From the IMG/VR virus record IMGVR_UViG_3300027861_000012, positions 32,380 through 96,379 of that record: a DNA stretch of 64,000 bases, one strand, 5' to 3'. The notes under the pieces are model-generated. The model had not been told where the DNA came from and did no database searches. It saw only the letters and a list, made by a program, of their open reading frames with translations. This document shows, piece after piece, positions 206 through 29,700 of the stretch (positions within the stretch are counted from its first letter, which is position 1; each line of letters starts with the position of its first letter). This DNA comes from a virus. Taxonomy: Duplodnaviria; Heunggongvirae; Uroviricota; Caudoviricetes. The translations under genes and the position numbers were made by a program.

Positions 206-750
206 GTAGTCCTCTTTCGCATAACGGAACGAAGTTCAGTATCGAAATGATACCTTTCAACTTCTGGCATGTGCGATAGCATCCAGTGAAGTTGTTGTGG
301 TGTATACTGTTCCCACCACTCTGTATCCTCTGGCCATGCCTCAATCTCCACTGTGGTCTTCGGTAGATTGAGGAGAGCAAATAGTGTATCAAGGTGCCTA
401 TTGAAGTTTTCGCGGTAGATATGAAACTGGCAATCAGGAGCTTGAACAAACAACGGTCTGCCTTCATAGGCCACCAGTGCGTAGTCCATCGGTTGGTCAC
501 AGAACAGCATACTTGCTGCTTTGCGCCGCAGGAACACAACGGCAGGGTTGCAGATGACCGTGAAGAATCGAAGCTCGACACGATCCTGTATGGACAAAAT
601 GCCGGTGTCTACCAGTTCCCCATAGCTGATTCCAGGGCGGCCCAGTACCCTTGCCCCTGGTAATGACGACCAGTAGTGTCGAAACTTTGGCATAGGAACC
701 AAAGGCTCATCAAGAAACACAGTCTTCAGTGTCTCATTCAAGACGGCCAT
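202..750 (-). CDS. hypothetical protein, weakly sulfotransferase-like
   Basis: 182-aa ORF. The ICNPAVVFLRRK segment loosely resembles the RNPxD..S 3'-PAPS-binding motif of sulfotransferases. Adjacent gene overlaps are typical of an operon. Confidence 0.4.
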   Translation of the reverse strand: MAVLNETLKTVFLDEPLVPMPKFRHYWSSLPGARVLGRPGISYGELVDTGILSIQDRVELRFFTVICNPAVVFLRRKAASMLFCDQPMDYALVAYEGRPLFVQAPDCQFHIYRENFNRHLDTLFALLNLPKTTVEIEAWPEDTEWWEQYTPQQLHWMLSHMPEVERYHFDTELRSVMRKRTT

Positions 751-1190
751 CGTTGCTCATGTTCTTCGAGTGGTTGTAGATTCTCAGCCATACGTTCGAT
801 CACCGGTATCAAATCAGGCATACCAGTATCTCTGGCCCGTGTACGACAGACCAGGGGGTTTGTTGTAATGTGATGAAAGTAGACGCGGAAGTTGATGCCA
901 TCCTCGTCACCACCCCATTTGCGAAGCTCGTCCCTAGCTGATAGAGTGGTGTTGGTTGCATCCATGATCACTACATCGTGGCCAGCTTCAAACAGCGCTT
1001 TGATCATGATTTTCACATGTGCCCATACAAGCTCTTCGCACGGAGCATACCATCGGTTACCGTGAATCACCAACCTCAAAGCATCGGGGCTCACAATAGG
1101 CGCACCCAAGTCTTCAGCAAATGTCCTGGCCCAGGTGGACTTACCCGACCGAGGGAGGCCCATCATCGCTATCAGTCTGTTTGTTGACAT
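738..1190 (-). CDS. polynucleotide 5'-hydroxyl-kinase-like P-loop kinase (T4 Pnk kinase-domain homologue)
   Basis: Walker A GLPRSGKSTWARTF is nearly identical to T4 Pnk GCPGSGKSTWAREF. 150 aa matches the size of the stand-alone kinase domain. The downstream motif VIMDATNTT resembles Pnk IISDTNLNP. Confidence 0.65.
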   Translation of the reverse strand: MSTNRLIAMMGLPRSGKSTWARTFAEDLGAPIVSPDALRLVIHGNRWYAPCEELVWAHVKIMIKALFEAGHDVVIMDATNTTLSARDELRKWGGDEDGINFRVYFHHITTNPLVCRTRARDTGMPDLIPVIERMAENLQPLEEHEQRWPS

Positions 1191-1542
1191 CTCGTTCTTT
1201 CACTGCTTGAATGACCGCGTCGAGTTTCTTGAGCGTCTCGTAGACTAGGAGACGTTCTTCTTCGAGTTCTTTGCAATCTACGGATACAATGACATCCGGA
1301 TCGTCACAAATGTCAGCCACCGCATGTAGACCTTTCACGACATGGTGGTAGTCTATCGTGAAGGTGTAGGTGATATTGATCAGATCACCGTTATCTACCA
1401 CCATTCTGTCTTTGTACTCTGGCATCAACGTAAAGATGGATGAGGTATGGCGGTCGTATGCCGCCTTTTCAAGCACCATCAGAATTTTAACAACCTCTGT
1501 CCGCTCGGGCTCGACACCCTTTCTGTAGATGCTGGTACTCAT
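1141..1542 (-). CDS. hypothetical protein
   Basis: 133-aa ORF in a compact minus-strand gene string. No recognisable motif. Confidence 0.45.
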   Translation of the reverse strand: MSTSIYRKGVEPERTEVVKILMVLEKAAYDRHTSSIFTLMPEYKDRMVVDNGDLINITYTFTIDYHHVVKGLHAVADICDDPDVIVSVDCKELEEERLLVYETLKKLDAVIQAVKERDVNKQTDSDDGPPSVG

Positions 1543-2066
1543 ACTGGACTCCTATATCCGTTTTGTCGGATCTCACTATCAAAGAGACGCGACACTAAAT
1601 CGAGAGCTTCGGGATCTTCTTTGTAGAACTCGCTGAAATCCAGGTCACCACGGTACGGGGAGCTATTCATTTGGGGTATGTCTGCCGGAACTAACCCTGC
1701 CCAAGTTAGCAACCAATCAAACTCATGCTGAATCTCTTCGTAGCGTATGATGTAGTTGGCATGGAGGACGTGTCCAAACAGTCTTCCTTCGGGGCAATAC
1801 TTCGTGTGGGTGTACCACTCCTCAATGAAATCGTTGAGTGACAGGTTTCCACGATCCATCTTACGCCACCATGAAACCATCACGTCATAGGGATTACGAA
1901 TCGTGGTGGCAACCATCCAACCAGCCGGTGGTCGTTCTTCAAGACCTGAGTGATGACTACCAACCATCCTTGCCCCAAACCGATCCATGAGCACCCCCGC
2001 TGTGGCATACGAAGCCGTGCGAGGGTGCGCCAGGTAGATCAGGTGGTGGTCTTCAAGGATATACAT
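1539..2066 (-). CDS. sulfotransferase-family protein
   Basis: 5'-PSB-like AHPRTASYATAG near the N-terminus and 3'-PB-like IRNPYDVMVSWW (RNPxDxxxS), typical of PAPS-dependent sulfotransferases. 175 aa. Confidence 0.55.
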   Translation of the reverse strand: MYILEDHHLIYLAHPRTASYATAGVLMDRFGARMVGSHHSGLEERPPAGWMVATTIRNPYDVMVSWWRKMDRGNLSLNDFIEEWYTHTKYCPEGRLFGHVLHANYIIRYEEIQHEFDWLLTWAGLVPADIPQMNSSPYRGDLDFSEFYKEDPEALDLVSRLFDSEIRQNGYRSPV

Positions 2067-3388
2067 CAGACCTGTATTTCCTCAAGCATGTCGATCTTGT
2101 AGCGTTGTGGTCCAGCCGCGTCCACCGAAGGACGCCGCAGCCGTACTGGAAGCCGCCAGGTGACGCCATACTTTTTGTTGACACCATGCAACAACTGCGT
2201 GGGCTCGGTGAAGCCAGAGAAAGCATTGAAAGCATACGGGTCAGTGGCTACCCAGGCTCCGTTGATCATCAACTCGCCGTCCATCTCCATGGTTGTCCCT
2301 GGACGATGGAAATGCCCACAACAGTAATAGCGAATCGGCGGCCCAGCCATATGGCGATCCAGACCCATGATCCGTCGCTGGCGTCGTTCAAGACCGTACC
2401 ACGGGATGCCAAGGTTGCTTCTGATATCGTCGCCGTGGAAGACACAGAAACCAACACCACCGATATCAAGGTTGATCGAGAACGAATTCGGAATAGTGAA
2501 GTCAACATTCCCCATGTCGCCACAATACTGCTGGGCAGTCTTGGCAATCAGGTAATCCCAGTTGTCGTGAGCACCATGGTAGTTCTTCTTGTTTGACCGG
2601 CGGCCGTGGTTACCAGGCACGTAGACCACATTCACTTGCTCGAAATACTGCGCAAGTTCTCGGAACATCAGAGCATGAAGCTGGCCAATGGCCAGTGTGT
2701 TCTTGAAGATGTTCTTGAAATAGGACCGCTCAACGTGACCATGAATCTCGCCGCTGGTATGATCACCATAGCACAAGATGGTGATGTCAGGGAAATGGAA
2801 CTGTGGCTTCAGGGTTACCTGAGTCCATTTGATCACGGCATCAACATACCGCTCGGCACGAGCCACACTGATCGGGAAGTTGTATTCTTCCAGGTAGCCC
2901 ACCATCTCAGGGCTCACGACTTGATCATGGTGACCATCGGAGATATGCATCACAAGATGCTCAGTAACGTCCCCGTGCTTCCGGTTACTGGGAAGCTTAA
3001 TTGCAGAAGGCAGGGGTCTCATCGGGACGATCTTGTCCTCAAGTTCATCCGCGATGGCAAGGAATAATCCATGTTCCTTAGCAGCCGCCTTCAACGCCCG
3101 TTTGGCATCGTTGCGCTCAACTCGTAGATGCTCAACTTCGGATTGTAGTTCCAGGATTTTGTCGTCAGTCGGATCAAAGGACTCTGGTGGTGGACCTGTT
3201 CGCTTGCTGGTAGTTGTGGGGCCAATGTCTGCATGAGACCGACCACACTGAATGTCAGAAACATAGCTGCGGCTGATCTTGTACTTCTTTGCAGCCTTGG
3301 TCTGGATCATCCCTGCATTCAAGTCGGTCTTCAATGCAATGATCTGATCGTCCGTCAGCAGTTTTCGATTTGCCATGGGGAGCCTCAT
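2066..3388 (-). CDS. calcineurin-like metallophosphoesterase with N-terminal HTH and coiled-coil region
   Basis: Metallophosphatase motifs GDHTSGEIHG, VPGNHG and CGHFHRPG. The N-terminus (MIQTKAAKKYKISRSYVSDI) looks like a helix-turn-helix. 440 aa. Confidence 0.7.
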   Translation of the reverse strand: MRLPMANRKLLTDDQIIALKTDLNAGMIQTKAAKKYKISRSYVSDIQCGRSHADIGPTTTSKRTGPPPESFDPTDDKILELQSEVEHLRVERNDAKRALKAAAKEHGLFLAIADELEDKIVPMRPLPSAIKLPSNRKHGDVTEHLVMHISDGHHDQVVSPEMVGYLEEYNFPISVARAERYVDAVIKWTQVTLKPQFHFPDITILCYGDHTSGEIHGHVERSYFKNIFKNTLAIGQLHALMFRELAQYFEQVNVVYVPGNHGRRSNKKNYHGAHDNWDYLIAKTAQQYCGDMGNVDFTIPNSFSINLDIGGVGFCVFHGDDIRSNLGIPWYGLERRQRRIMGLDRHMAGPPIRYYCCGHFHRPGTTMEMDGELMINGAWVATDPYAFNAFSGFTEPTQLLHGVNKKYGVTWRLPVRLRRPSVDAAGPQRYKIDMLEEIQV

Positions 3389-3442
3389 TATGAACTAAGT
3401 GATACTACTTATTCCTATTATACCAAGAACCCGACCGGGCTG

Positions 3443-4537
3443 TCAAGCCCGATCTTGCGCATCTTTCCGAGCATAATAGTCCGCGCTGACAATTTTCACG
3501 ATCATCCGACCACATAGTACAGATGACCATTGTTCTTTCACGGGGGTTACTACACACCCCTCTCGGCCCTTGTATTTGCAAGTGATGTCCGCCGGGCTCG
3601 CTGCCATGGTCGGACCATCACAAAGGGACATGAGGCTTTCATCGAACACACCCTCATAAAGGAGGGGGACTGTCGGGACATTATGTTTTGTGGCATACGC
3701 CTTGACATCTGCCCAGTCCATGTACTTCATGTGCCCTGGCTGCCCGGCCATGATATCGAACAACCGATAACCCCCTCGTTCGGGGGTCCCATAGTCCATA
3801 TCCTGTACCTTGCGGCCATAGATTTCGCCATAGGCTACAACCGAGCAGTTGGCCTCTCTGAGGGCGATGTCGGTGAGCATGTTCTGCATCTCTCCGGTCA
3901 AAGGAAGCCAATACAGGGACGCTCTGGAGCCAGAACGGGCATCTGAGAGGGCTTTCACATTGGTCTTGTGTGACCCACACATGAACTCGGGCCCGTCTTC
4001 CGTGTAGACCAAGCCCACCCGGCTGTTGGTGCCGTGCATCTTCTCGGTGGCTCGCACGATGGTTCCTGGCGGAATCGCACCGGGGTTGGCCCGTAGATGC
4101 TGTATATGTGTATAGACCGGGAACAACAGGTTCTCGGGTCGAGCATCCCCGGCAGTAAGCTCGGGTGGCGGCTCGTACTTGATCCCGGCGTAGACCTCAG
4201 TGACATCGGCCCCAAAGGTTAGGTCACCTTCGTAGGGAATCACGAAGCCAAAGGACGCCTCCCCACGGATACGGATCGCACCTACCCTACACTGAGATTT
4301 CTGAGAATCACCAGGGTAGATGGAATGCTTGAGATACGCACGCACACCCAGCGATTCAGCGGTATCTTCTGGGATTAGCATGTCAGGCGGGAAGAACACC
4401 ACTTTGTCCTTCACCTTATGGAGGCCCTTTTTCACGACCAACTGAAAACCGAGTACCTGGATGATGTCCAGGCGATCTGCATTGGGGTGGTCTTCGACTT
4501 CATTGACGCGCTCAACAGTGATGAGTGTCTTGCTCAT
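3443..4537 (-). CDS. RNA ligase (Rnl2-like nucleotidyltransferase) with N-terminal tRNA-binding OB domain
   Basis: N-terminal VNEVEDHPNADRLDIIQV... matches the CsaA/Trbp111/EMAP tRNA-binding OB fold (HPNADKL signature). The central EKMHGTN matches the lysine-adenylyltransferase motif I KxHGTN of T4 Rnl2. Confidence 0.65.
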   Translation of the reverse strand: MSKTLITVERVNEVEDHPNADRLDIIQVLGFQLVVKKGLHKVKDKVVFFPPDMLIPEDTAESLGVRAYLKHSIYPGDSQKSQCRVGAIRIRGEASFGFVIPYEGDLTFGADVTEVYAGIKYEPPPELTAGDARPENLLFPVYTHIQHLRANPGAIPPGTIVRATEKMHGTNSRVGLVYTEDGPEFMCGSHKTNVKALSDARSGSRASLYWLPLTGEMQNMLTDIALREANCSVVAYGEIYGRKVQDMDYGTPERGGYRLFDIMAGQPGHMKYMDWADVKAYATKHNVPTVPLLYEGVFDESLMSLCDGPTMAASPADITCKYKGREGCVVTPVKEQWSSVLCGRMIVKIVSADYYARKDAQDRA

Positions 4538-6324
4538 ATAGTTTCTCCTGGCGAGATATACACGGGGTGAGGAAAATTAGGATCGGGATGATGCTCGATC
4601 AAGTAGTCCATGGCAGCCACAAAATGAGCCGGTTCGGATATGTTGTCATAAATCTTCTCGTCCATTGGCGCAACCTGTACACGCTGCCGCATTTCCTGGC
4701 GAAACTCTTCGTCATCAATCATCCGTGTGATCAGTTTCTGGTATCCATACCGACTCTCAGCAATGAGTTCCGGCATGTTCAGCATACGGTTCACGGCCGA
4801 TGATGCTCTATTGTACCAATGATCACCCTGTAGAGTGATTACTGGTTTACCAACATGCAATTGATCGATAATTGTATTGTAACCTCCGAACGGGAAAGAA
4901 TCAATACCAAAATCGCCCCATTCCAATCTGGCCATATAACCAGCATAACCACCATTATCGGGTAGAACACGGGCGCTCCCGCCCTCAAAAATGTCGTGAA
5001 TCTCCGTCAGGAATGCATTCAACCCGTTGTAACGACAGATCCCGCTGCTTGGGAAGAAATGTACACGCGACTCGTGTTTGGCATCCATCATCCCGGCTCG
5101 CACAGCCGTAAGCATATCACGATTGTACTTAGACGGGCCCCAACATGCGTTGATCAGAACAATGTCAGTTTCCCGCTCCGGGTTGGTGAGTTCGTATGTT
5201 GGGCGAACTGACTGATTTCCCATCCCAGGGAGTAACACTAACCGCTCTGAATAATTAAGGTACGCCTCAGAGGACTCCACAGCGTCTCCACTGATGAAAA
5301 AATCAATCTCGGTTCCAACTGTACTGACTGGGTGGCCGGTGGTCAAAACCTGGATGGGTGCAAATCTTTGGTTGGCCAGAATGATGGACTGCGAGTTCAT
5401 GCCAACATCCGGGTAGATGATAGCTGCGTACTGGTTATCCAACAACGGTTCCAGACCGAGGAAATCATTGCCCTCAGTATGGATGAAATGAACCTTCTCG
5501 AAGCCCTCGGTGTCCAATTTCAAATCACCAGCATCCTTGTTCAAATGAAACAAGTCCAGCTTGAACGGCCCCTTCAGAGCGTTGATGAGCGGGGCCACAC
5601 TTCGATGGACCACAGTGTTGGGTGCCCACCGGTCAGAAATGATTGCAATCCGCTTTGGATCTGGGTTGTTTGTGATCTTCATAGGCGGCCACTTCTTACG
5701 AACACACTCGTTGATACGAGCCTTAATCAACGGGGCACCGTCATGATCAGCATACGTTGGCACAAAGTGGATGTCCGTGAACTGGGTGGTTTGTGGAAAA
5801 TCACCAAAGGGTCCGGCCCTGAAATGATTTCGGAGATTCTTTTCGATTCGTGGGTTGATGATGCTACCCGTGCAGGTTGGATATAGTGACCACCACAGGG
5901 TTGCTAATGAGTCCTTCTCCAAAGTGTCATAGTCAACCTGTACGCTGGTCCGTGGGCACACCAGGGTGAGTATCTTGGCACGATGGCCTTTGGTTCGCAT
6001 ATCCAGTTGGGCCAACCACTTATCGGCGGTCTTGAATCTGGACATGGCTACGATGTTGGCGATGACTGGATTTAGGCGGACGAAGTATTCCTCATCCATG
6101 CCTGCAATACGAAACTTCTTCCCGGTGAATGTATCCAGGAAGACTTCCAGAAACTCGTCCACATACTTCTCGGTTTTTGGCTGCATTGGACCAAAGTTGA
6201 CGGTGCAAAAGAGTCGCATAGCTTCGACTATCAACACCATGTAGTGCATATAGTTCTTCTCTTTGTAAGCCTGACGAATATCATCGAGAAGAAGATCAGG
6301 TAAAGCTCGTGTCAAATGTGGCAT
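4534..6324 (-). CDS. GT41-family glycosyltransferase (O-GlcNAc transferase / HMW1C-like catalytic region, no TPR)
   Basis: The C-terminal block FPFGGYNTIIDQLHVGKPVITLQGDHWYNRASSAVNRMLNMPELIAESRYGYQKLITRM aligns to the OGT/HMW1C donor-binding region ([38 protein letters not shown]...ELIAKNRQEYEDIAVKL). 596 aa. Confidence 0.6.
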   Translation of the reverse strand: MPHLTRALPDLLLDDIRQAYKEKNYMHYMVLIVEAMRLFCTVNFGPMQPKTEKYVDEFLEVFLDTFTGKKFRIAGMDEEYFVRLNPVIANIVAMSRFKTADKWLAQLDMRTKGHRAKILTLVCPRTSVQVDYDTLEKDSLATLWWSLYPTCTGSIINPRIEKNLRNHFRAGPFGDFPQTTQFTDIHFVPTYADHDGAPLIKARINECVRKKWPPMKITNNPDPKRIAIISDRWAPNTVVHRSVAPLINALKGPFKLDLFHLNKDAGDLKLDTEGFEKVHFIHTEGNDFLGLEPLLDNQYAAIIYPDVGMNSQSIILANQRFAPIQVLTTGHPVSTVGTEIDFFISGDAVESSEAYLNYSERLVLLPGMGNQSVRPTYELTNPERETDIVLINACWGPSKYNRDMLTAVRAGMMDAKHESRVHFFPSSGICRYNGLNAFLTEIHDIFEGGSARVLPDNGGYAGYMARLEWGDFGIDSFPFGGYNTIIDQLHVGKPVITLQGDHWYNRASSAVNRMLNMPELIAESRYGYQKLITRMIDDEEFRQEMRQRVQVAPMDEKIYDNISEPAHFVAAMDYLIEHHPDPNFPHPVYISPGETI

Positions 6325-8150
6325 GGACTTGCTCCACGAATGTAAATGGGACTGATAGTATTCGGATTGGGTTGCTGTTCAATGAGATACTGCACAGCAG
6401 TCTTGAACGCCACCTGCTCCGTCGTGTCAGTATAGAACGCATCCCGCAGCACATCTTGTTTGATACGGGCTACCATTTTGGTACGAAAATCATCATCATC
6501 GATCATTCGCGTGATCAGATCGCGGTATGTGTCATAGTTAGTGGTAATCAACTCACCCATACCCATGACATCGATAATTGCTGAAGATGCTCGATTGTGC
6601 CACTGGCCACCCTGGAATGTGACAACTGGATTCTGAACATGCAACAGGTCAAAGATCGTGTTGAACCCACAGAACGGATAGGAGTCAATTCCGAAGTCGC
6701 CACGCTCTAGTCTGTGCATGTAAGCGGGTCGCCCGCCTGCTGTCTCCATGATCACCGCGCGGTCACCCATAATGCTCTTGGTACTGTTTTCAAAAGCACT
6801 GAACCCAAAGTAACGATTGATCCCGTCGTTCGGGAAGAAGTGGACCCGTGACTTCCGCTTTGCATTGTCCATTGCATCACGAACAGCTTCTAACATGGGG
6901 CGATTGAATTTGGCACCACTCCAGCACGCATTGATAACGATGGTCTCATCCCGCTTGGGGCGTTGCAACTCGTAAGCAGGTTGTGTGGCTTGAATCCCCA
7001 GGCCAGGCAGCAATACCAATCGCTCAGAGTAATTCACTTCTGCCATGTTTAGATTCTCACCAAGGTCACCGCTGATGAAGTAGTCGATCTTACCACCAAA
7101 CGTACTGACTGGATGTCCCATCAGTGCCATTTGTATTGGCGCAAATCTCTGATTCGAGAGGATCACCGACAGATTCGACATACCAATGTCAACATACATG
7201 ACCGCACCATACTGGTTATTTAGTAGCGGTCCAAGATTCTGCAACGGGTCCTTCTTGTCGGTTGACAACTCATACACGTTCTCAAAGATGGTCGTGTCTT
7301 GTTTATCAGGGTCATGGGGTTGCCCTTGAAACAGATCCATGCGATACTGGCCATGCAGGGCCTTAACCAGCGGCCCCATAGTACGATAGATCACATGGCG
7401 ATTCTGCCAGCTATTGGTGATAACCGCTATCCGTTTTGGATCGGGGTTGTTGGTGACTTCAAGCTGTGGCCATCTCTTCTGAATGTGCTCGTTGACCCGC
7501 TGCTTCAGCTTTCGACTCCCCGGCAGGTCTTTGTAGGACGCAAGGAAAGCAGCATTAGTAACGCGAGTATCTTGAGGGAATGCAGGCGGTGGTCCCCATC
7601 GGAAACATCGAGTCAGATTCTCATTGATGTAATCTTCCGCTGTGTTGCTGACTCCGCGTGTATATGCTGACCACCACAGGGCTACAGCCTCTCGGTCGCC
7701 CTCATGCAAGATGTCAAAATTCACCCGGCGTCTGATACGAGATGACAGCAGTACCAGTACCTTCAGAAAGTTGTGCTCAAATGGCTCAGCAATCTGTCCG
7801 TCAGCATCCAAGAGTTGATCCAACCATCTGTCCGCTGTCTCGTGCTTTGAGGCAGCTAAGAGGTTGGCTATCATCGGATTGAAATCAATGAAGCGGGCGG
7901 CATCATAGGCTTCCAGTTGGAATTTTTCGCCTACGAAGGTGGACAACAACACTCCCATGAAATCAGAGATTCCGGCTTTAGCTGCGGCATCCGGGCGGGC
8001 TGATTCCAGCTTGTGATACAAACCCATGGAATCATTGAACAAGGCAGCATACTGAGGGTAGTTTCTGGTCTCGTATGCCAACTTGAGTCGAACGGCTACA
8101 TGCTTGAAGATATCACCAAACTGGCCTAATGCTTGAATCGATGGGAACAT
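6312..8150 (-). CDS. GT41-family glycosyltransferase, paralogue of the preceding gene
   Basis: Same C-terminal GT41 block (YPFCGFNTIFDLLHVQNPVVTFQGGQWHNRASSAIIDVMGMGELITTNYDTYRDLITRM). Start moved to the ATG at 8150, which has a GGAGG site 6 nt upstream and abuts the stop of the methyltransferase. The 706-aa ORF-track start is probably too long. Confidence 0.6.
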   Translation of the reverse strand: MFPSIQALGQFGDIFKHVAVRLKLAYETRNYPQYAALFNDSMGLYHKLESARPDAAAKAGISDFMGVLLSTFVGEKFQLEAYDAARFIDFNPMIANLLAASKHETADRWLDQLLDADGQIAEPFEHNFLKVLVLLSSRIRRRVNFDILHEGDREAVALWWSAYTRGVSNTAEDYINENLTRCFRWGPPPAFPQDTRVTNAAFLASYKDLPGSRKLKQRVNEHIQKRWPQLEVTNNPDPKRIAVITNSWQNRHVIYRTMGPLVKALHGQYRMDLFQGQPHDPDKQDTTIFENVYELSTDKKDPLQNLGPLLNNQYGAVMYVDIGMSNLSVILSNQRFAPIQMALMGHPVSTFGGKIDYFISGDLGENLNMAEVNYSERLVLLPGLGIQATQPAYELQRPKRDETIVINACWSGAKFNRPMLEAVRDAMDNAKRKSRVHFFPNDGINRYFGFSAFENSTKSIMGDRAVIMETAGGRPAYMHRLERGDFGIDSYPFCGFNTIFDLLHVQNPVVTFQGGQWHNRASSAIIDVMGMGELITTNYDTYRDLITRMIDDDDFRTKMVARIKQDVLRDAFYTDTTEQVAFKTAVQYLIEQQPNPNTISPIYIRGASPCHI

Positions 8151-8151
8151 A

Positions 8152-9366
8152 TCACCCTCCATATGGTACAAGTTGACCGTTGTCAATGTACATGATTTGC
8201 TTGCAGTTGATGCCAATCGAACGAATTTGATCAGCGATATCGTGAATTCGCCAAGCTGACGTAACAATGATGGTTCGTGGCGGATCTTGCACCAACTCGT
8301 CGATAGGAAATTTGATTTCCTGCCCTGTGCCGGGGACAAACAGTTCCACCAAGGCCAAATTAGAATCCACCACCAACGGGTACCGTGTCTTGTCCACTTG
8401 ATACAGATTGAAGAATGAAGCACTCTTGCCAATCGCGCCCCAGAAGGCTAGCGGTCGGTTGTACGTGTCATCCAACTCTTGGGTTCTAAGGAACTCCAAT
8501 TGACCCTGTACCGTGGCGACCTGAAGGGCGATCTGATCAGCAAACCCCTCGGCCCGTTTCCGATGTGACATTGGGGATCGTAATTTCACCAACGCGGTCA
8601 GCATCGATCCACGGCAGTCTGGCTTGAGATAGACTACACGAAAATGCTTACGCAGTAGTACATCCAAGCTACTCAGCGTGAAATGTGAAACATGCTCGTA
8701 CATCATGTCCTGTGAACGAAGCCGATCCAGAATGAGATCGCCATTAGGCACTTCGATGAACACAAACGGGGATACCTGAGTAATGTGGCAGGCACGCACC
8801 AGTTCATCGATAAACTCGGCTGGACGCGGGAAGTGCTCCAGGACATGTCGCATGATGATCAAACTGGGCTCATGCTTATCAATGTCGTATTCACAGTTGG
8901 CAAATGCGCGTTCAATGATGATATCCTGGCCTTCGTTGGCAAACTCAGCATCTGACACATCAACGCCAGGATCGACGCCACGGTATCGAAGACGGGCCCC
9001 GAGTGGATACTGAATCATTTCGCGCATAAACCCGCCGCTACCGCTCCCGATTTCAAGAACTGTACTGGTATCAGGTAATTGGGCACGTTCCAGAATCTCG
9101 TTGGCCGCCCGCTCAAAATGATCCTTCCAGGCAATGCCACTATTGTACATCTGCCAGTCCTGTTCATAGTCCACGTTCTTCTCTTCAAATTGAAGATTGA
9201 AAATGTGGCCACAATCCTCACACAGAACATGATGCATCCCGAATTTAGGGGCACACATAGCATCAGCAACCGTCTGTGGAATACGTAATGTGGTCAACGG
9301 CTGTGGGCCGGGATCATACAATGGGATTAGGTTCCTGGACTCACAAACTATGCATTGGCGTCTCAT
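8152..9366 (-). CDS. SAM-dependent C-methyltransferase (zinc-ribbon + Methyltransf_13/14 architecture, as in NDP-hexose C-methyltransferases)
   Basis: N-terminal CxxC...CxxC (CIVCES...CEDCGH), SAM motif I VLEIGSGSGGF, acidic motif II, and a long C-terminal domain. 404 aa. Confidence 0.7.
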   Translation of the reverse strand: MRRQCIVCESRNLIPLYDPGPQPLTTLRIPQTVADAMCAPKFGMHHVLCEDCGHIFNLQFEEKNVDYEQDWQMYNSGIAWKDHFERAANEILERAQLPDTSTVLEIGSGSGGFMREMIQYPLGARLRYRGVDPGVDVSDAEFANEGQDIIIERAFANCEYDIDKHEPSLIIMRHVLEHFPRPAEFIDELVRACHITQVSPFVFIEVPNGDLILDRLRSQDMMYEHVSHFTLSSLDVLLRKHFRVVYLKPDCRGSMLTALVKLRSPMSHRKRAEGFADQIALQVATVQGQLEFLRTQELDDTYNRPLAFWGAIGKSASFFNLYQVDKTRYPLVVDSNLALVELFVPGTGQEIKFPIDELVQDPPRTIIVTSAWRIHDIADQIRSIGINCKQIMYIDNGQLVPYGG

Positions 9367-13389: not shown

Positions 13390-14289
13390 TTAACGAGGGA
13401 TAATGATTTCAGGCAAACTCCAGATGATGTAGTCTGGGGGAACGTCCTGTGCAACAATCAGATTGATGAAGTCATAAGCGAAATTGCAGATTGCCTCCAT
13501 CCCACGATAGTTCAGTGTGTCAGGTTTGTCGGTGGTCTTGTGGTAAGTACCAAAGTCCGTACCAGTATGCAGAAAGGCCACCGGCACCCCGCCGTTATCA
13601 AATGAAACTTGATCGCTACCCGAGTTGCGTTTGAATGTGATCGACTTGGCAAACGGGTATTTCGGGAACAATGTCTCAAGAAGAGAATCGACATCAACAT
13701 CGGTGGCATACTTCTTCTTTAGGTGGCCGATCATATCGATGTTCAACATGACGATATGCTGATCAATATCTGGGTCACCGACTGGAAGTGTTGGGTTCTT
13801 CACGTAATACTTTGATCCAACCAAATAGGGGTTGATCTCCTCACCTGTGTACCACTGAAATGCAATGGTAAAGGCGGGTTGCGTACCGGCTGCGAATCGC
13901 TTTGCCAACCCAAGCACTGCTGCGGAGCCCGAGGCATTGTCATCCGCACCTGGATACACGCGACGATTCCTCACGCCAATATGATCCAGATGAGCACCGA
14001 TCACCACAACCTGTGTGGGGTCGCTGCCTTCGATCCAAGCAATGACGTTCTGGCACTTACCCCTCGGGGTGGGCACCGTCTGGCGTTGAACCTGAAGTCC
14101 AGCTTCCTGGCACCGAGCCACGATCCAATCTTGAGCTTTCTGGATGTCTTTCGTGGCCGTCGCCCGACCACGTAATTCTTGTGAAGCGAGATATTCGACC
14201 GTAGAACGGAGTTCCTCCGCTGTCTGGGCATGGGTCAACGAACAGATGCCCATCACAACTATAATCAATAGGGATCGCAGCCATTTCAT
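13390..14289 (-). CDS. secreted M28-family zinc peptidase (aminopeptidase-like)
   Basis: Signal peptide MKWLRSLLIIVVMGICSLTHAQTA. M28 metal-ligand motifs HLDHIG, GADDNASGSAAVL, GEE and NIDMIGH. Confidence 0.7.
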   Translation of the reverse strand: MKWLRSLLIIVVMGICSLTHAQTAEELRSTVEYLASQELRGRATATKDIQKAQDWIVARCQEAGLQVQRQTVPTPRGKCQNVIAWIEGSDPTQVVVIGAHLDHIGVRNRRVYPGADDNASGSAAVLGLAKRFAAGTQPAFTIAFQWYTGEEINPYLVGSKYYVKNPTLPVGDPDIDQHIVMLNIDMIGHLKKKYATDVDVDSLLETLFPKYPFAKSITFKRNSGSDQVSFDNGGVPVAFLHTGTDFGTYHKTTDKPDTLNYRGMEAICNFAYDFINLIVAQDVPPDYIIWSLPEIIIPR

Positions 14290-21523: not shown

Positions 21524-23106
21524 TCATTCGCGGGCAAAGTCAGCCATGATCTTCGGGGCACTGGCATCGAAGCCAACGACATCGAGCATCCCTGCATCGT
21601 TGGGGTCCGCGATGGAGATCTCGTTGGCGGTGAAGGCCACCACAATCAACTTGGCGTTGATACCCATCTTCCGGCGGTAGTCCTGTAGTGCTACAGCAGG
21701 GTGTACGCTGTTACAGTTGGTCTCGCTGTCCGTGTAGATCACGAACACATCAGTCGGAATCTTTTCCTGGGTCGCGTACCTCATCGGAAGTGAACAGTCT
21801 GTGCGACCAAATGGGAGGCCGGTGATCATGCGATTCACTTCAGAAAGCGATGTTCGCTTGGTAACGGGCAACGAGTGGAAGGTATTGCAGAACCCATAGG
21901 TCTGCACTTGGTCCTCAGATCGAACCAAAGTAGCAGCCATACACCCGGCAGCATCCCGTGGCGTCAAGTGCGTGTTGTTGATCGTGCCATAGGTCATGGA
22001 CCCAGACACATCCACACCCAGCAGATAACGCTGACCAGTGGGCTCGACGTACCCAAAGGATGCATCGTAGGCGTCTTCCAGGGAATCCAACACCTGGGTT
22101 ACAGGGCTCCAACGGAGACTGCCACGAACACCACAACCTTGTTGATAGGTGGAGAGTGCCAGCAGCACGCTGAATGGATGTACCCGAGCACGTTGAAGCT
22201 GCTCTCGGTCCCGAAGCTGGGCACATACCTGCTTCACTGCTGAGGTGTTGGGCTTCAGAACGTCGATGCTGGTCATCTTACCCAAATTCCGGATCAAAGC
22301 CGTCATAGGCATCCGCAACTCAAGCATGGCTTCCCAGACTCTTGGGTCATTGAGGAACTGAGTCGGGATGTTCTCACGGACCAAGCCGTAGCTCCGAACC
22401 AAGGCGGCAACCTCTTTCGAGGTGGTAGCCAACTTGACCTTTTCGACGCCTTCCAGTGTGTGGTTGGTCACCATCGGGTAATCCCCACCCGGCTTCCGCA
22501 CGGCGTACCCAAGGATCTGGTTGATCTCGGCGTTGTTGGTGTGTGCATGGCAACACCGAAGCACGTCACGATGAGACCAGCCACCGCGTTGCTTGTACTT
22601 CGTAATCTGAGCGGCCAGCCGATCAGGTCGGTGATTCAGATACCAGTTCGAGACGGCACGCTTCAAGGCACGGCCCCAGCCACGGAATTGAGTCACTGCA
22701 TCCACGAATTGGAACAGGTGTGTTCCGATTCGACATACTTCGCTAAGGCGCGGCAGTGCAATGCTACTGTAGCGGGCATCGGCACACAACATAGCCAAAC
22801 AGAAAATGGCAGGGTCATTCTTTGCAGCCCGGCCTTCGTCACTGATCTGCACAATGCGGTCCACGGTTCGCTGTGCATCCTCAGCAGCACAGATGCGAAG
22901 AGACTCAGCAGCTTCGATAGTGAGCTTCTGCTCACCGGCATAATAGGTTCCGCCTTCACACCCAAGAATCAGAAACCGATCCAAGCGTGTCCAGCAATCA
23001 ACTTCCCAACCAAAGCCACCGCCGCTGTTGGCGACTTGGTTACTACCGACCAAGGGGCGCGTCTGAGGAGTGTTACTTGGCGAAAGTGTGCGTGCGTACC
23101 TATTCA
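21524..23106 (-). CDS. rsr: Ro60 (TROVE domain) ribonucleoprotein orthologue with C-terminal vWA domain
   Basis: N-terminal TROVE block NSGGGFGWEVDCWTRLDRFLILGCEGGTYY matches Ro60 (NSAGGYAWKVDDWQRL..GSEGGTYY). C-terminal vWA MIDAS region LLGVDVSGSM. Start set at MNRYARTL, which has AAGGAG 6 nt upstream. Confidence 0.8.
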
Positions 23107-24663: not shown

Positions 24664-24737
24664 AATGTAGCACGGCTACGAGCAAAGAGGTAGGAGTGGG
24701 GGTTTCATGCTTCCAATTACACCACCGAAGACGCTAG

Positions 24738-24812
24738 GCGACTCCGACCGGGACTCGAACCCGGACCAAATCATTTCAAGTGATAATCCACTCCAAATCG
24801 GCTCGTAAGCCA
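24738..24812 (-). ncRNA. tRNA-like element (T-arm + 3' acceptor strand + anticodon-like hairpin; no matching 5' acceptor strand)
   Basis: Minus-strand sense has a perfect T-arm CCGGG-TTCGAGT-CCCGG, then TCGGAGT-C, and a hairpin ATCA-CTTGAAA-TGAT. No ACTCCGA partner was found. Confidence 0.25.
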
Positions 24813-24910
24813 TGTATTGGGACCATGAGCCGAGCCAGTCTTTCGACATACTCCCGACTCACAGCCTTGTGTTTTGACTCCGAACAAATGTCAAACATGG
24901 GAACTATGCT

Positions 24911-24941
24911 ACTGGCGCTCTACCTACTGAGCTACCCCACG
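24911..24941 (-). ncRNA. tRNA 5'-half-like fragment (acceptor 5' strand + canonical D-arm)
   Basis: Sense CGTGGGG-TA-GCTC-AGTAGGTA-GAGC starts 2 nt after the encoded CCA of the upstream element. No canonical anticodon or T-arm follows contiguously. Confidence 0.25.
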
Positions 24942-24942
24942 C

Positions 24943-25016
24943 TGGGCGTGAGAGGAGGAATCGAACCACCGACATCCAGTTCCTTTGATAACCCATATCC
25001 TACGGCTCAAAGTCAA
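24943..25016 (-). tRNA. probable tRNA with encoded CCA (anticodon not resolved by eye)
   Basis: Sense 3' end ...GGTGG-TTCGATT-CCTCC-TCTCACG-C-CCA (T-arm with one mismatch). The 5' boundary is estimated from length only. Confidence 0.3.
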
Positions 25017-25062
25017 GGAGCACCGAGGGACTCGAACCCTCAACGGTTGACCATCAGTGCTC
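25017..25062 (-). ncRNA. 46-nt tRNA minihelix-like element (7-bp acceptor + perfect T-arm, no D or anticodon arms)
   Basis: Sense GAGCACT-GATGGTCAACCGTT-GAGGG-TTCGAGT-CCCTC-GGTGCTC-C. Acceptor pairs 7/7 including one G-U. T-stem pairs 5/5. Confidence 0.3.
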
Positions 25063-25398
25063 ATGTGCGGGCAAGTTTGCGGTGAACGGGTTTTCATGTG
25101 CTCGATAACCGTAAACCAGCGGCCCGCTTGTAACATGCGAGCAAGTTGTTTGCCGAGGTCATGATCTCCTAAAGATAACCCTCAGCTAGCGGCTCGCGTG
25201 TACCTCTGTAAACTTGTGCGAACAAGTTGGTTGGCCAAGGGGGAAATCTTAATTGGATAACCCTTGGCTAATCGGCTCGCACGACTCTTCGGTGATCACT
25301 TCACGACGCTCTCCTTCAGGTAAGTGTAACGTTTGATGAAGCTCTTCACTTAACTATTCAATTCTACCATACTTTGTTTCGGAAGTCAAGGACCAATT

Positions 25399-25677
25399 TC
25401 AAGATTTCTTTTTGGGGAACTTAGACCCCTCAGTTCTGGGCCTCAATGGGTCGGATCGAACCTCATAGGCCCAACCCTCGGCCTCGTTACCCTCAAGCTC
25501 CATCTGAGGGTCTGCATCCCTCATCAAGGCTTCTGCCTCATCCATGGTGTCACAGTCGTTGTGCTCAAAGAGGTCGATGATTACCAAAGCAACCGTCTGG
25601 CGTTCCCCTTCAGGAATGTGCGGTTTGATCGCATCCCACAGGTCCTCGGCCAACATTGATCCACTTCCCCATCCCAT
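25399..25677 (-). CDS. hypothetical acidic protein
   Basis: 92-aa ORF. Confidence 0.4.
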   Translation of the reverse strand: MGWGSGSMLAEDLWDAIKPHIPEGERQTVALVIIDLFEHNDCDTMDEAEALMRDADPQMELEGNEAEGWAYEVRSDPLRPRTEGSKFPKKKS

Positions 25678-25884
25678 ACATAGCTTACTCCTTATGTCCT
25701 ATGTCCTATGGTGCCGCACCGGTGTGCTGGAAGCACCCAGTGATTTATCTCTTTGCCATCCTGCGAATATATGATGTGAAACTCGGCAGGTTCCAACGGG
25801 CCCACACGGGCGTCCCCACCCTCAACAGTTGGGCCAAAGAACGTTATGACCTTCTCAAATAGCCACCAGAACACGGCTCGCTCC

Positions 25885-25992
25885 TTACCAGTGTCGGATC
25901 ATGTCACCCGCGCCAATCGACAGACTCACAACCAGTGCTGCGGAAAGGATCAGAATCACCCAACACCAGATACTCTCTTCCCGGTCACTCAT
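25885..25992 (-). CDS. possible small membrane protein (35 aa)
   Basis: Hand-translated MSDREESIWCWVILILSAALVVSLSIGAGDMIRHW with a single TM helix. It is below the ORF-track length cutoff. Confidence 0.25.
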   Translation of the reverse strand: MSDREESIWCWVILILSAALVVSLSIGAGDMIRHW

Positions 25993-26351
25993 TTCTTGTA
26001 CCCGTCATCAATCGGATCAAGTTCCTTGCCAATCGGTACTTTCGGGTTCGGCTCAGGATACCAGAAGTGGTGGCCGTCCATCTGGAGAATACGTCTCATG
26101 CCCCACCAATAGATGCGCCCCCATGGTGTCTCGTGGTAATCATTCGTCTTGGCTTGGTAACCAAGTGTCTGGTTTTGGTACATAAGGATGCCCCATGTAC
26201 CTTCAGATCGGGACTTCGGAGCCGTGATCACCAGCGTGAAGCTCCACCCGTCCTCAACGTAAACATCGCTGAGGTTTGTGTTAATCGGGTCGGCGGCAAC
26301 CGCCTGGGTTGCCAGTACCATGACCAAAAGGATACTTGCGATCAGTTTCAT
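25989..26351 (-). CDS. secreted hypothetical protein
   Basis: Signal peptide MKLIASILLVMVLATQAVAADP. 120 aa. Confidence 0.5.
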   Translation of the reverse strand: MKLIASILLVMVLATQAVAADPINTNLSDVYVEDGWSFTLVITAPKSRSEGTWGILMYQNQTLGYQAKTNDYHETPWGRIYWWGMRRILQMDGHHFWYPEPNPKVPIGKELDPIDDGYKK

Positions 26352-26385
26352 GCTTCACATCCTCTCATTCAGGGTTGGTAGTAAG

Positions 26386-26458
26386 TAGGGCGTGGGGGAA
26401 TTGAACCCCCGTTGCCGGGATGAAAGCCCGGTGTCCTAGTCCACTAGACGAACGCCCC
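26386..26458 (-). tRNA. tRNA-Glu (anticodon TTC)
   Basis: Hand-folded cloverleaf: acceptor GGGGCGT/ACGCCCT, D-arm GTCT..GGAC, anticodon stem CCGGG/CCCGG with loop CTTTCAT, T-arm GGGGG-TTCAATT-CCCCC, discriminator A. Confidence 0.8.
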
Positions 26459-26463
26459 TCGGG

Positions 26464-26664
26464 TCACTCCGGTGTTGTTTTTGCTCCGACAAGTTCCAGA
26501 TACATCTTGATGTCTTCTTTTGTCTTAAAGCGATAACGGCCATCACTGGCGGCGGCACCCGCAATAATCCGTGCGATACCTTCACAGTGCTTCATGTAGG
26601 CGGCTTGCGCAAACTTCAACTTGTCACACTGATAGGTGTCGTCTTTTGGGGTTTGCAATTTCAT
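26464..26664 (-). CDS. hypothetical protein
   Basis: 66-aa ORF. Confidence 0.4.
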   Translation of the reverse strand: MKLQTPKDDTYQCDKLKFAQAAYMKHCEGIARIIAGAAASDGRYRFKTKEDIKMYLELVGAKTTPE

Positions 26665-28146: not shown

Positions 28147-28262
28147 CAGAGTCTCCGATTATACGATCTGCAATAGACAATAAGTCATTCCAAGCCTGGT
28201 CTGAATACTGAACAACTTTCATCCATGGCCCCTGGGAACCATTTCGCACCACGTCCACTCCA

Positions 28263-28445: not shown

Positions 28446-28536
28446 CAGATCGCTCCTAAAAAGGTGAGAACGTACAGGACTACATAGGTGCCAAAGACGG
28501 ACCCAAGGAAGATCGTCACCGATTGGGTCTCATCAG

Positions 28537-29691: not shown

Positions 29692-29700
29692 GGCGTCTCC

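Follow-up and report, generated by a model that had tools for sequence, protein, structure and literature searches.

To our knowledge, all characterised GT41 enzymes act on proteins, and we know of no HMW1C that is paired with a C-methyltransferase-type gene. The HMW1C/NGT branch of this CAZy family is represented by the structures of ApNGT (3Q3E, 8J30) and AaNGT (8P0O-Q). Yersinia pestis HmwC, the product of a stand-alone bacterial gene, shares the HMW1C architecture, has no TPRs and is 41% identical to ApHMW1C, and was reported to O-GlcNAcylate several cytoplasmic proteins from UDP-GlcNAc, with His276 (NGT His276/277) being crucial (PMC11329713). As a result, linkage and donor are not readable from this fold. 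In enterobacterial flagellin glycosylation islands GT41 and a SAM methyltransferase are functionally coupled, and GT41 proteins with methyltransferase domains are common (De Maayer & Cowan 2016, PMC4875605); flagellin glycosylation has been described as O-linked, on Ser/Thr (PMC7591256). The NDP-hexose C-3 methyltransferases TylC3, TcaB9 and KijD1 are encoded in gene clusters for antibiotic deoxysugars, together with dehydratases and reductases. Among viruses, mycobacteriophage capsids and tails are glycosylated by phage GTs, mimivirus fibrils are glycosylated, and the capsid glycans of chlorovirus PBCV-1 involve virus-encoded sugar methyltransferases. The original prediction was therefore too strong in calling it new for a phage to glycosylate its own virion, since virion glycosylation by virus-encoded GTs has been described for both phages and giant viruses (PMC9614988, PMC11256854).

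The window analysed here, 64,000 nucleotides of an uncultured phage of ~178 kb, contains an operon of a sugar-type C-methyltransferase (MT; 8152–9366, 404 aa) and two GT41 glycosyltransferases shaped like HMW1C, GT2 (6312–8150, 612 aa) and GT1 (4534–6324, 596 aa). All three genes lie on the minus strand in the same orientation and are translationally coupled in the order MT, GT2, GT1. Each is preceded by a GGAG-type ribosome-binding site; MT and GT2 are 1 nt apart while GT2 and GT1 overlap by 13 nt, and overlaps of 4 nt join the MazG-like gene to MT and GT1 to an RNA ligase gene. The predicted reading frames were confirmed with one coordinate correction, the start of GT2, which is the ATG at 8150 and gives a product identical to database protein P0005 and to the gene called in L001. 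A 706-aa, TTG-extended reading frame for GT2 was rejected. GT1 and GT2 are paralogues of 45% identity.

Both glycosyltransferases were verified as TPR-less GT41 proteins of HMW1C-like architecture, scoring 46.3 (GT1) and 36.5 bits (GT2) against Pfam GT41 (PF13844; gathering threshold 25), with no TPR match to either in the Pfam search. HMW1C/NGT were the best solved relatives of both. GT1 matched NGT in a phmmer search of the PDB (E 4.7e-16), and the GT family profile aligned to HMW1C from end to end, all-alpha domain included (E 2.6e-66), while OGT and SPY aligned over the catalytic part only (about 1e-22). An AF2 model of GT1 (pLDDT 93.6) matched 8j30, 8p0q and 3q3e over its full length in Foldseek (TM 0.77–0.79), and a search of BFVD returned no HMW1C-like viral structure (best TM 0.38). 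Despite passing the GT41 threshold, the two proteins scored 80–92 bits (GT2 92) on the NCBIfam NGTferase equivalog model, against a cut-off of 1000, and they are ~20% identical to HMW1C/NGT, ApHMW1C included. Each GT is predicted to combine an N-terminal all-alpha acceptor-binding domain with a GT-B catalytic domain, to bind a nucleotide sugar through the conserved residues Lys, Asn, Asp and Gly-His, and, in the cytoplasm of the host, to transfer a monosaccharide to proteins in a folded or partly folded state.

The residues through which NGT contacts UDP (Lys440, Asn520, Asp524, Gly369-His370, Tyr500 and Arg280) have conserved equivalents in the GT family. K399, N483 and G330-H331 (GT1 numbering) were invariant in all 52 family members, and D487 and Y463 were found in 48 and 50 of them, respectively. 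Judging from this alignment the nucleotide-sugar site is kept. At the position of NGT His276, GT2 keeps the His (motif HVIYR) and GT1 has Thr (motif TVVHR). One related phage encodes only a GT of the Thr type, which argues, on gene content, that this is a functional type. The lack in GT1 and its orthologues of the His reported as crucial in HmwC was counted against our preferred interpretation.

In MT an N-terminal Cys4 zinc ribbon (Cys-x2-Cys...Cys-x2-Cys; C5, C8, C49 and C52) precedes a Rossmann SAM domain, and the C-terminal domain is of the C-methyltransferase kind. Its Pfam matches were Methyltransf_23 (50 bits) and, weakly, Methyltransf_13 and Methyltransf_14. As a single sequence MT reached an E of only 5e-10 against characterised enzymes, at low identity; the profile of its family (A3) matched TylC3 (E 2.7e-31), KijD1 (1.4e-24) and TcaB9 (5.5e-23) in the PDB over positions 6–373. 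This end-to-end match bore out the assignment to the NDP-hexose C-methyltransferase type. The three domains, the zinc-ribbon cysteines and the SAM glycines are shared with these enzymes, and the active-site His and Glu-His motifs are invariant in the family, whose invariant residues are C49, C52, G107, G109, E177-H178 and Y223-E224-H225. Unlike those of the antibiotic clusters, this subfamily almost always adjoins a GT41 gene, and NDP-sugar genes, including any for a 4,6-dehydratase or a ketoreductase, are absent from the window. A C-methylated donor would consequently rely on host intermediates and a further reductase, a point counted against our preferred interpretation. The most likely substrate of MT is the sugar, which would be methylated once attached or, prior to transfer, as an NDP-4-keto-hexose donor provided by the host.

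Full-length GT homologues were present on 30 IMG/VR contigs. In 26 of these MT lay directly upstream of GT, nearly always adjoining or overlapping it, and three close relatives share this arrangement. A broad clade of uncultured phages carries the MT–GT41 pair as a core module, and GT identity within it falls to 29%. In contrast to HMW1C, the phage GTs nearly always have a C-methyltransferase-type gene as partner and are accompanied by no HMW1-type two-partner-secretion adhesin.

The same coupling was found in bacteria. A GT41 catalytic domain was encoded within a few kb in 66 of 80 bacterial loci with an MT homologue, mostly at ≤300 bp and on the same strand, and genuine flagellins and/or fliD lay within 8 kb in 31 of the 80. 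Loci of the form fliC-GT41-MT-fliD, with the same MT family as the phage at 31–36% identity, occurred in Planctomycetota, Bryobacterales, Burkholderia and others. Most bacterial partners of MT are TPR-type GT41 proteins, in contrast to the phage; the nearest cellular relatives, fliC-MT-GT loci of Planctomycetota and of a Rickettsiales MAG, have an HMW1C-like GT as in the phage (29–36% identity) and the same MT-then-GT order. In a neighbour-joining tree, built without support values, a single split united all 27 phage MTs with no more than three bacterial ones, each of them from a fliC-MT-HMW1C-like-GT locus. A literature search found no biochemically characterised member of this MT–GT41 pair. 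In contrast to the flagellar loci, neither the window nor any phage locus contains flagellin or fliD. This absence was likewise counted against the preferred interpretation, as were the tree's lack of support values and the derivation of the flagellar link from bacterial loci whose proteins are 29–36% identical to those of the phage.

Our preferred interpretation, to which we assign a probability of roughly 0.55 on comparative sequence evidence, is that the cassette is a borrowed flagellin-type kit for cytoplasmic protein glycosylation, probably O-linked and with a methylated sugar. It would be the phage version of a GT41 and methyltransferase pair that is widespread in bacteria. Because the bacterial pairs are often embedded between fliC and fliD, we infer a flagellin-like mode of transfer, most likely O-linked to Ser/Thr of surface-exposed regions rather than N-linked at NX(S/T). 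The leading candidates for the acceptor are one or more proteins of the virion surface that are rich in Ser/Thr, for example the giant fibre-like proteins described below. Each of the two GT paralogues may have its own acceptor, or they may attach different sugars or sugars in succession. In having its own cytoplasmic GTs for surface proteins, and a sugar methyltransferase as in chloroviruses, the phage would resemble the known viral systems, although those use other GT families and virion glycosylation is here a prediction.

The flagellin-locus origin of the nearest cellular cassettes could also point to a host protein as the target. Flagellin or another surface appendage protein might be re-glycosylated, blocking superinfection by rival phages or preventing the trapping of progeny, or cytoplasmic host proteins might be modified during takeover in the manner of OGT. 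HmwC modifies several cytoplasmic proteins, bacterial GT homologues that stand alone are orphans, as regulatory OGTs are, and the cassette lies among nucleic-acid metabolism genes of early or middle type and not among structural ones. Conservation across a clade in which the GTs diverge to 29% identity, however, fits a constant phage-encoded partner better, and a phage of this size that looks lytic would gain little from changing flagella built after infection. A host target is on balance unlikely.

Three giant Thr/Gly/Asn/Ser-rich reading frames, whose products are candidate acceptors, were confirmed on the minus strand: giant protein 1 (47892–55118, 2408 aa), with a LamG-like domain; protein 2 (55130–57475, 781 aa), whose N-terminal part is a LamG domain (Pfam Laminin_G_3, E 2.9e-13); and giant protein 3 (57460–64000, >2177 aa), which runs past the window end. 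According to the original prediction these are sequon-rich and N-glycosylated by HMW1C/NGT-type enzymes at the Asn of NX(S/T), with hexoses that are perhaps methylated or sulfated. Their 62 sequons, at 1.0–1.3 per 100 aa, are indeed about three times as dense as those of 35 other ORFs of the window (0.35). Composition shuffles nevertheless gave 29.9, 9.5 and 25.9 expected sequons for proteins 1, 2 and 3 against 31, 10 and 21 observed (z +0.2, +0.2 and -1.1), and read in reverse the motif was as frequent or commoner, so the excess is fully accounted for by composition. The NGTs are the closest solved structures and share the full architecture, GT1 has Asp at the position of NGT Asp215, and a sulfotransferase-like gene lies nearby, all of which would agree with N-glycosylation. 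Asp215 and Arg177 are the residues through which NGT recognises the Ser/Thr at +2 of the sequon. That Asp is, however, replaced by Asn in GT2 and by Pro in most phage homologues, just 17 of the 52 family members having it, and no conserved Arg of the GT family aligns with Arg177. The low equivalog scores and identity and the O-GlcNAc transfer by HmwC argue in the same direction, as do the cellular counterparts, which adjoin flagellins and not two-partner-secretion adhesins; no adhesin or TPS domains were found in the giants. With the cassette also 38 kb from the fibre genes, N-glycosylation of the giants appears quite unlikely, while a virus-encoded protein-glycosylation module as such remains a reasonable part of that prediction.

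The cassette is located in a nucleotide-metabolism and RNA-repair block and not in the structural module, and this position, like the distance to the fibres, was counted against the O-linked protein-glycosylation interpretation. On one side it is flanked by ThyX, RNR and a MazG-like pyrophosphatase, on the other by an RNA ligase, an Mre11-like nuclease and a polynucleotide-kinase-like protein, a gene order kept across the phage clade. Such a setting would suit glycosylation and methylation of phage DNA bases against restriction, or a modification of RNA ends in connection with the RNA repair genes. The T4 alpha- and beta-glucosyltransferases, which act on phage DNA, are GT-B enzymes as well, and glycosylated cytosines are known from diverse phages (PMC13326640). 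The fold is, however, specifically HMW1C-like with an acceptor-peptide-binding all-alpha domain, the characterised GT41 enzymes known to us act on proteins, and homologous cassettes adjoin flagellin genes. By type MT is a sugar C-methyltransferase rather than a DNA or RNA methyltransferase, and the window encodes ThyX, dCMP deaminase and dNMP kinase of ordinary dTMP/dCMP metabolism, with no ThyA-type hydroxymethylase or hydroxylase seen. A nucleic-acid target is accordingly most improbable.

Of two sulfotransferase-like genes predicted on the minus strand, only that at 1539–2066 was credible. Its compact product of 175 aa has a PRT(A/G)S loop, an HH pair and an RNPxDxxxS motif, and matched phrog_3347 (E 5.8e-4). 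The product of 202–750 matched nothing in Pfam, PHROG or NCBIfam and is a divergent paralogue of the former (hhalign of profiles A5 and A4, probability 97.7%, E 1.9e-12); since its phosphosulfate-loop Thr/Ser, His pair and Arg of RNP are all substituted, it is probably catalytically dead. The family profile of 1539–2066 (A4) retrieved almost only sulfotransferases from the PDB (best E 1.5e-4), aligning the His and 3'-PB motifs, and the AF2 model (pLDDT 91.6) gave Foldseek top matches that were weak (E 7.5e-3, TM 0.35–0.52) but nearly all sulfotransferases. The gene is kept in close phage relatives. These matches weakly but consistently mark 1539–2066 as a candidate sulfotransferase-like gene; a tie to the cassette is putative.

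The cassette at window positions 4534-9366 comprises three genes in the same orientation on the minus strand. These encode a methyltransferase (MT; 8152-9366, 404 aa) and two GT41 paralogues, GT2 (6312-8150, 612 aa) and GT1 (4534-6324, 596 aa), that are 45% identical to each other across 587 aa. A gap of 1 nt separates the MT stop from the GT2 start and the GT2 and GT1 genes overlap by 13 nt, while overlaps of 4 nt join MT to the upstream MazG-like gene and GT1 to the downstream RNA ligase gene. A GGAG-type ribosome-binding site lies ahead of every cassette gene. The start of GT2 was placed at the ATG at 8150, since the resulting product matches both P0005 in the database and the called gene of the source contig without a difference; a 706-aa TTG-extended ORF was rejected. 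The window originates from a 177,656-bp metagenomic contig that is present in JGI, ENA and Logan assemblies. Its phage-like genes include class II RNR, ThyX, helicase, primase-like proteins, an Mre11-like nuclease and RNA ligase, alongside a dCMP deaminase, a dNMP kinase and two tRNAs. A DNA search of the region and tblastn with GT1 returned no relative among 50,697 GenBank phage records, and the conserved Mre11-like nuclease had matches in the same records at 22-26% identity only. No cultured relative or host can therefore be named.

GT41, comprising OGT, SPY and HMW1C/NGT (N-glycosyltransferase), is the family of cytoplasmic protein glycosyltransferases. Both enzymes scored above the Pfam cut-off of 25 for PF13844 Glyco_transf_41 (46.3 bits for GT1 and 36.5 bits for GT2) with the alignment confined to the C-terminal ~100 aa, and no TPR matches were obtained in Pfam for either. 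The nearest solved relatives of GT1 were AaNGT and ApNGT/HMW1C (E 4.7e-16, residues 290-549), followed by OGTs. A family profile built from GT1 and 51 homologues aligned with HMW1C from position 17 to 558 at E 2.6e-66, N-terminal all-alpha domain included, whereas only the catalytic part of SPY, OGT and XcOGT was matched (E about 1e-21 to 1e-22). The AlphaFold (AF2) model of GT1 (pLDDT 93.6, pTM 0.92) is helical at residues 13-211 and continues into two Rossmann halves, corresponding to an all-alpha domain and a GT-B fold. Foldseek placed this model at a full-length TM of 0.77-0.79 to 8j30, 8p0q and 3q3e, at about 20% identity, and at ~0.5 to OGTs. The original prediction of two TPR-less HMW1C/OGT-like GT41 enzymes was thus right, and the HMW1C branch is right at the level of architecture. 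Against NCBIfam NF049992, the equivalog model for NGTs, which are sought-after tools for glycoprotein production in bacteria, the two enzymes scored 80 and 92 bits, far under the cut-off of 1000. No HMW1C-like protein was found among predicted viral structures (BFVD), where the top TM was 0.38 and the matches were generic GT-B enzymes.

Active-site residues were mapped by alignment using the AaNGT complexes of PMC10507012 as reference. The counterparts of AaNGT Lys440, Asn520 and Gly369-His370 (K399, N483 and G330-H331 in GT1) are found in 52/52 family members, those of Tyr500 (Y463) and Asp524 (D487) in 50/52 and 48/52, and the position of Arg280 (R241) holds R or K in 51/52. The same nucleotide-sugar-site residues are kept in the 29 homologues from IMG/VR. 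Because the donor site is conserved both in the family and in these homologues, GT1 and GT2 appear to be active enzymes. Residues that read the acceptor differ from those of NGTs. AaNGT recognises the +2 Ser/Thr of the sequon through Arg177 and Asp215, and its R177A and D215A variants are inactive (PMC10507012), but neither residue is conserved in the present GT family. In the Asp215 column GT1 has D and GT2 has N; D is found in just 17/52 family members, MT-linked phage GTs mostly have Pro there, and no conserved Arg occurs in the family alignment in the columns aligned with Arg177, a low-confidence stretch. At the position of AaNGT His276, equivalent to ApNGT His277 and to His276 of the Yersinia pestis HMW1C-like enzyme HmwC, where it is reported to be crucial (PMC11329713), GT2 carries His (HVIYR) while Thr is found in GT1 (TVVHR) and in its orthologues P0002 and P0003. 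Across the family, 35/52 members have His here, 9/52 have Thr and 6/52 have Ser, and the sole GT of one related phage is of the Thr type. Although HmwC shares 41% identity with ApHMW1C, its reported activity is that of an O-GlcNAc transferase, with UDP-GlcNAc as donor and several cytoplasmic proteins as targets (PMC11329713). Given this precedent and an identity of ~20% to NGTs, the linkage and donor of the phage GTs cannot be read from their relatives, and HMW1C-likeness does not imply N-linkage.

The acceptors originally proposed were three giant Thr/Gly/Asn/Ser-rich ORFs on the minus strand (giants 1-3; 47892-55118, 55130-57475 and 57460-64000), taken as candidate fibres that would be N-glycosylated in HMW1C style at NX(S/T) sequons. 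The sequon density of the giants is 1.0-1.3 per 100 aa versus 0.35 in the 35 other window ORFs used as background. Compared to 1000 composition-preserving shuffles per giant, the counts are as expected from composition, with 31 sequons in giant 1 (shuffle mean 29.9, z +0.2), 10 in giant 2 (9.5, z +0.2) and 21 in giant 3 (25.9, z -1.1). The reverse motif [ST]-x-N is as common or commoner at 32, 17 and 31 occurrences, respectively. The sequon richness of the giants is a by-product of their Thr/Ser/Asn-rich composition. As there is no enrichment beyond composition, the main link between enzyme and substrate in the original prediction is removed; glycosylation of the giants is neither proved nor excluded by this result. 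In Pfam the giants had LamG-type domains only and no haemagglutinin, adhesin or TPS domain, in contrast to the substrates of NGTs, which are HMW1-type TPS or autotransporter adhesins. The giants are 38 kb from the cassette and no sequence feature linking them to the cassette enzymes was found. The ORF of giant 3 leaves the window at its 3' end with the N-terminus outside, and the TTG at 63993 was accordingly discarded as a start. With sequon-reading residues that are not conserved, equivalog scores far under the cut-off and sequon counts set by composition, sequon N-glycosylation of the fibres is not supported and ranks below the main reading given further on. We regard O-linkage as likelier than N-linkage at NX(S/T).

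The methyltransferase matched Pfam Methyltransf_23 above threshold, and the zinc-binding Methyltransf_13 and the C-methyltransferase C-terminal Methyltransf_14 below it. Positions 6-373 of a profile built from 31 MT family members align with residues 9-394 of TylC3 at E 2.7e-31, and KijD1 and TcaB9 are likewise matched near full length, TcaB9 least strongly at E 5.5e-23. The profile alignment gives a three-domain build of zinc ribbon, SAM Rossmann domain and C-methyltransferase C-terminal domain. Cysteines C5, C8, C49 and C52 are present in the MT of the window and its homologues carry PF08484. E177-H178 and Y223-E224-H225 are invariant in 31/31 MTs and align with the EH motifs of TylC3 and KijD1; the second Cys pair and the SAM glycines are also invariant. 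In TcaB9, His181, Glu224 and His225 are the active-site residues. The zinc-ribbon, sugar-type C-methyltransferase of the original prediction is, on the basis of the near-full-length matches, the cysteines and the invariant EH motifs, a fair family call. TylC3, TcaB9 and KijD1 sit within an NDP-4-keto-deoxysugar pathway, whereas no 4,6-dehydratase, ketoreductase or other NDP-sugar gene was found in the scanned window ORFs or among the called genes of seven loci that include the source contig (L001-L007). Any C-methylated donor would therefore need host intermediates.

The pairing of MT and GT41 extends to other phages. Three related large contigs (128-178 kb) have a common order of M28 peptidase, ThyX, RNR, MazG-like, MT, GT41, RNA ligase and nuclease genes, with just one GT per contig, which belongs to the GT1 type or to the GT2 type. 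Both types also occur together on one 15.8-kb contig, so that the duplication is specific to that contig and the phage studied here. A scan of IMG/VR with the GT profile resulted in 74 loci, 30 of which have full-length homologues at 28-55% identity; giant-virus contigs among the 74 encode distant OGT-like GT41s only. An MT homologue is located directly upstream of the GT in 26 of the 30 contigs, and in nearly all of these its stop abuts or overlaps the GT start. Downstream of the pair there are usually RNA ligase (41-49% identical) and nuclease (56-64% identical) genes, and the order MT-GT-(ligase)-nuclease is conserved across the phage clade. The 4 loci that lack MT also lack the nuclease and the RNA ligase, and their GTs have an HS[VM][YW]R motif that is close to the one in stand-alone bacterial GT homologues. 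The MT-GT41 cassette is well supported as a conserved module; its acceptor, sugar and linkage are matters that we infer.

Three of the stand-alone bacterial homologues (e.g. in Pseudanabaena) were found in unrelated neighbourhoods with no adhesin and no MT, and the idea that the whole GT family is adhesin-linked was dropped as a result. A scan with MT of one genome per species gave 239 relatives, the best 80 of which, at 31-36% identity, were analysed and belong to Planctomycetota, Acidobacteriota, Burkholderia, Gallionella, Vampirovibrionales and others. With the GT41 catalytic domain as the sole probe, a GT41 gene was detected within a few kb in 66/80 of these best-matching loci, in most cases co-oriented with the MT and no more than 300 bp upstream of it, and in 8 of the 14 negative loci the MT is at a contig edge. 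The bacterial partners are mostly TPR-type GT41s. HMW1C-like partners occur in several Planctomycetota loci and a Rickettsiales MAG (29-36% identical to GT1; 25% at locus L101), and at L112 Pfam identified FliD followed by MT and an HMW1C-like GT41. All 80 loci were then probed with flagellin termini and FliD, the FliC sequences serving as probes only. Flagellin and/or fliD was present within 8 kb in 31 of these best 80 of 239 relatives, against an expectation of well under 1% by chance. Flagellins adjacent to the cassettes are Ser/Thr-rich proteins of 600-1060 aa whose N- and C-termini are canonical. No similarity was found between the giant flagellins among them and the phage giants.

A relation to flagellin loci was also seen in a neighbour-joining tree of 108 MTs, computed with no support values and read as unrooted splits since midpoint rooting was uninformative. 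One split unites all 27 phage MTs with only three bacterial ones, from L090, L091 and L157, all of which are fliC-MT-HMW1C-like-GT loci; as the tree carries no support values, this is suggestive of phage MTs being closest to those of fliC loci. L091 encodes P0007, the best cellular match of GT1. GT41 enzymes have been reported in 14 of 42 types of enterobacterial flagellin-glycosylation islands, nearly all with methyltransferase domains (PMC4875605), and flagellin glycosylation is O-linked to Ser/Thr of surface-exposed domains (PMC7591256). The phage cassette resembles these islands in coupling GT41 to a SAM methyltransferase. It differs in location, as neither flagellin nor fliD was detected in the window or any phage locus with the flagellin-terminus and FliD probes, in contrast to the 31/80 bacterial loci.

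The best-supported reading is that the cassette is a cytoplasmic protein-glycosylation unit of flagellin-system ancestry that is now core to an uncultured phage clade. The GT41s would move a sugar from a nucleotide donor onto protein, and MT would methylate that sugar before or after transfer. Ser/Thr-rich virion surface proteins, giants included, are a reasonable guess for the phage acceptors, and modification of host proteins, be it flagellin or cytoplasmic targets, is ranked lower. For nucleic-acid modification, including DNA hypermodification, the one pointer is the setting of the cassette among nucleotide-metabolism and RNA-repair genes, and this reading is ranked low on account of the peptide-binding architecture of the GTs, the flagellin association of homologous cassettes and a dTMP/dCMP gene set that is ordinary. 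Extending protein glycosylation further, the phage clade may have domesticated a bacterial flagellin-glycosylation cassette that is used in the host cytoplasm and coats virion surface proteins, the giant Ser/Thr-rich fibres for instance, with a methylated, possibly branched-chain, sugar, a scenario to which we assign roughly one chance in five. Its purpose could be mimicry of the host flagellar glycan or re-tagging of host flagellin to alter receptor availability. If true, the clade would provide the first phage example of virion or receptor glycosylation based on GT41, and a function would be assigned for the first time to the widespread pair of GT41 and TylC3-like MT.

Protein glycosyltransferases of family GT41, GT41 coupled to methyltransferase in flagellin islands and virus-encoded virion glycosylation are already known. 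The present results point to a large subfamily of HMW1C architecture that is set apart from NGTs by sequon-reading residues that are not conserved and by obligate pairing with a TylC3-like MT, and that occurs at flagellar loci in several bacterial phyla as well as in an uncultured phage clade, where the two genes are core. In the literature we did not find described the obligate association of an HMW1C-architecture GT41 with a TylC3-like methyltransferase, near-universal coupling of that pair across bacterial phyla or its fixation in a phage clade. Should the pair install a C- or O-methylated sugar on proteins, this would represent new protein-glycosylation chemistry and a new phage strategy, either virion decoration or host-surface rewriting. 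The claim made at the outset for sequon-rich fibres is tempered, the sequon richness of such Thr/Asn-rich proteins being a composition effect.

Two nearby genes had been described as sulfotransferase-like; one is a plausible sulfotransferase, on weak matches, and the other a probably inactive paralogue of it. The 175-aa product of 1539-2066 had a weak PHROG match to galactose-3-O-sulfotransferase. A six-sequence profile of this protein had no match in the PDB, while a 39-member family profile matched almost only sulfotransferases, weakly (top E 1.5e-4), aligning a His pair with the catalytic His and an RNPxD..S motif with the 3'-phosphate-binding motif. H39, R57 and D61 are invariant in the family and T17, S19, H38 and N58 nearly so. 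The top Foldseek matches of its model (pLDDT 91.6) were nearly all sulfotransferases, again weak (E at least 7.5e-3, TM 0.35-0.52), and the protein is ~100 aa shorter than known PAPS-dependent sulfotransferases. A compact sulfotransferase is a plausible assignment. The product of 202-750 had no database matches, but hhalign identified it as a divergent paralogue of the 175-aa protein (probability 97.7%, E 1.9e-12). It is probably inactive, since it retains none of the key residues of the loop, the His pair and the Arg. No PAPS-synthesis gene was found in the scanned window ORFs. Nothing ties the two genes to the cassette beyond a distance of 2.5-4 kb, and RNA ligase, nuclease and kinase genes lie in between.

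Several features of the bacterial loci were observed in addition. Flagellins of 920-1090 aa in Planctomycetota/Bryobacterales (L090 1767-5039, L091 4454-7657, L095 2909-5671 and L098 2944-5703) combine canonical termini with a very large Ser/Thr/Ala-rich centre and are likely to be heavily glycosylated 'giant flagellins'. In Burkholderia dolosa, four tandem TPR+GT41 genes surround one MT homologue (L153 4754-16428), so that the GT partner is expanded far more than in the phage with its two copies. In several proteobacterial loci (L014 4763-9224, L100, L116, L135, L150 and L163) the GT41-MT pair is accompanied by another, shorter Methyltransf_23 gene. Its products are 49-68% identical between loci, and its presence suggests that some cassettes have three genes and methylate twice.

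In the phage, an RNA-repair-like gene set is located directly downstream of the cassette on the minus strand (738-4537). One member, an RNA ligase (3443-4537), carries a PHA02142 OB domain; the others are an Mre11/SbcD-like metallophosphoesterase (2066-3388) and a polynucleotide-kinase-like AAA_33 protein (738-1190). The related phage locus L004 encodes a Thg1-like tRNA-His guanylyltransferase (21692-21833). An M28 peptidase is encoded four genes upstream of MT (13390-14289), as in phage relatives, and a bacterial genome of 5.2 Mb has another one directly downstream of its stand-alone GT homologue (L008 9903-11021); the recurrence may be coincidence. The tRNA genes Glu-TTC (26385-26458) and Met-CAT (31390-31465), both on the minus strand, mark the two ends of a stretch at 24700-31400 with few ORFs of at least 120 aa, where numerous small genes or non-coding RNAs may be located. 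Gene orientation changes from minus to plus at ~35 kb (34911-35403) and back at ~42 kb (42031-42454), and the sign of the GC skew flips over the same interval. This plus-strand island encodes a 990-aa primase-like DUF5906 protein, a dNMP kinase, an SMC-like ATPase fragment and an RNase T-like exonuclease. Two proteins matched phrog_200 ('lipoprotein'), encoded at 31518-32453 and 44079-44687. The latter, the only one of the two run against Pfam, is an SPFH/Band 7 protein, unusual in a phage structural region, and its gene lies directly downstream of that for a 955-aa protein which itself follows the giant-fibre genes.
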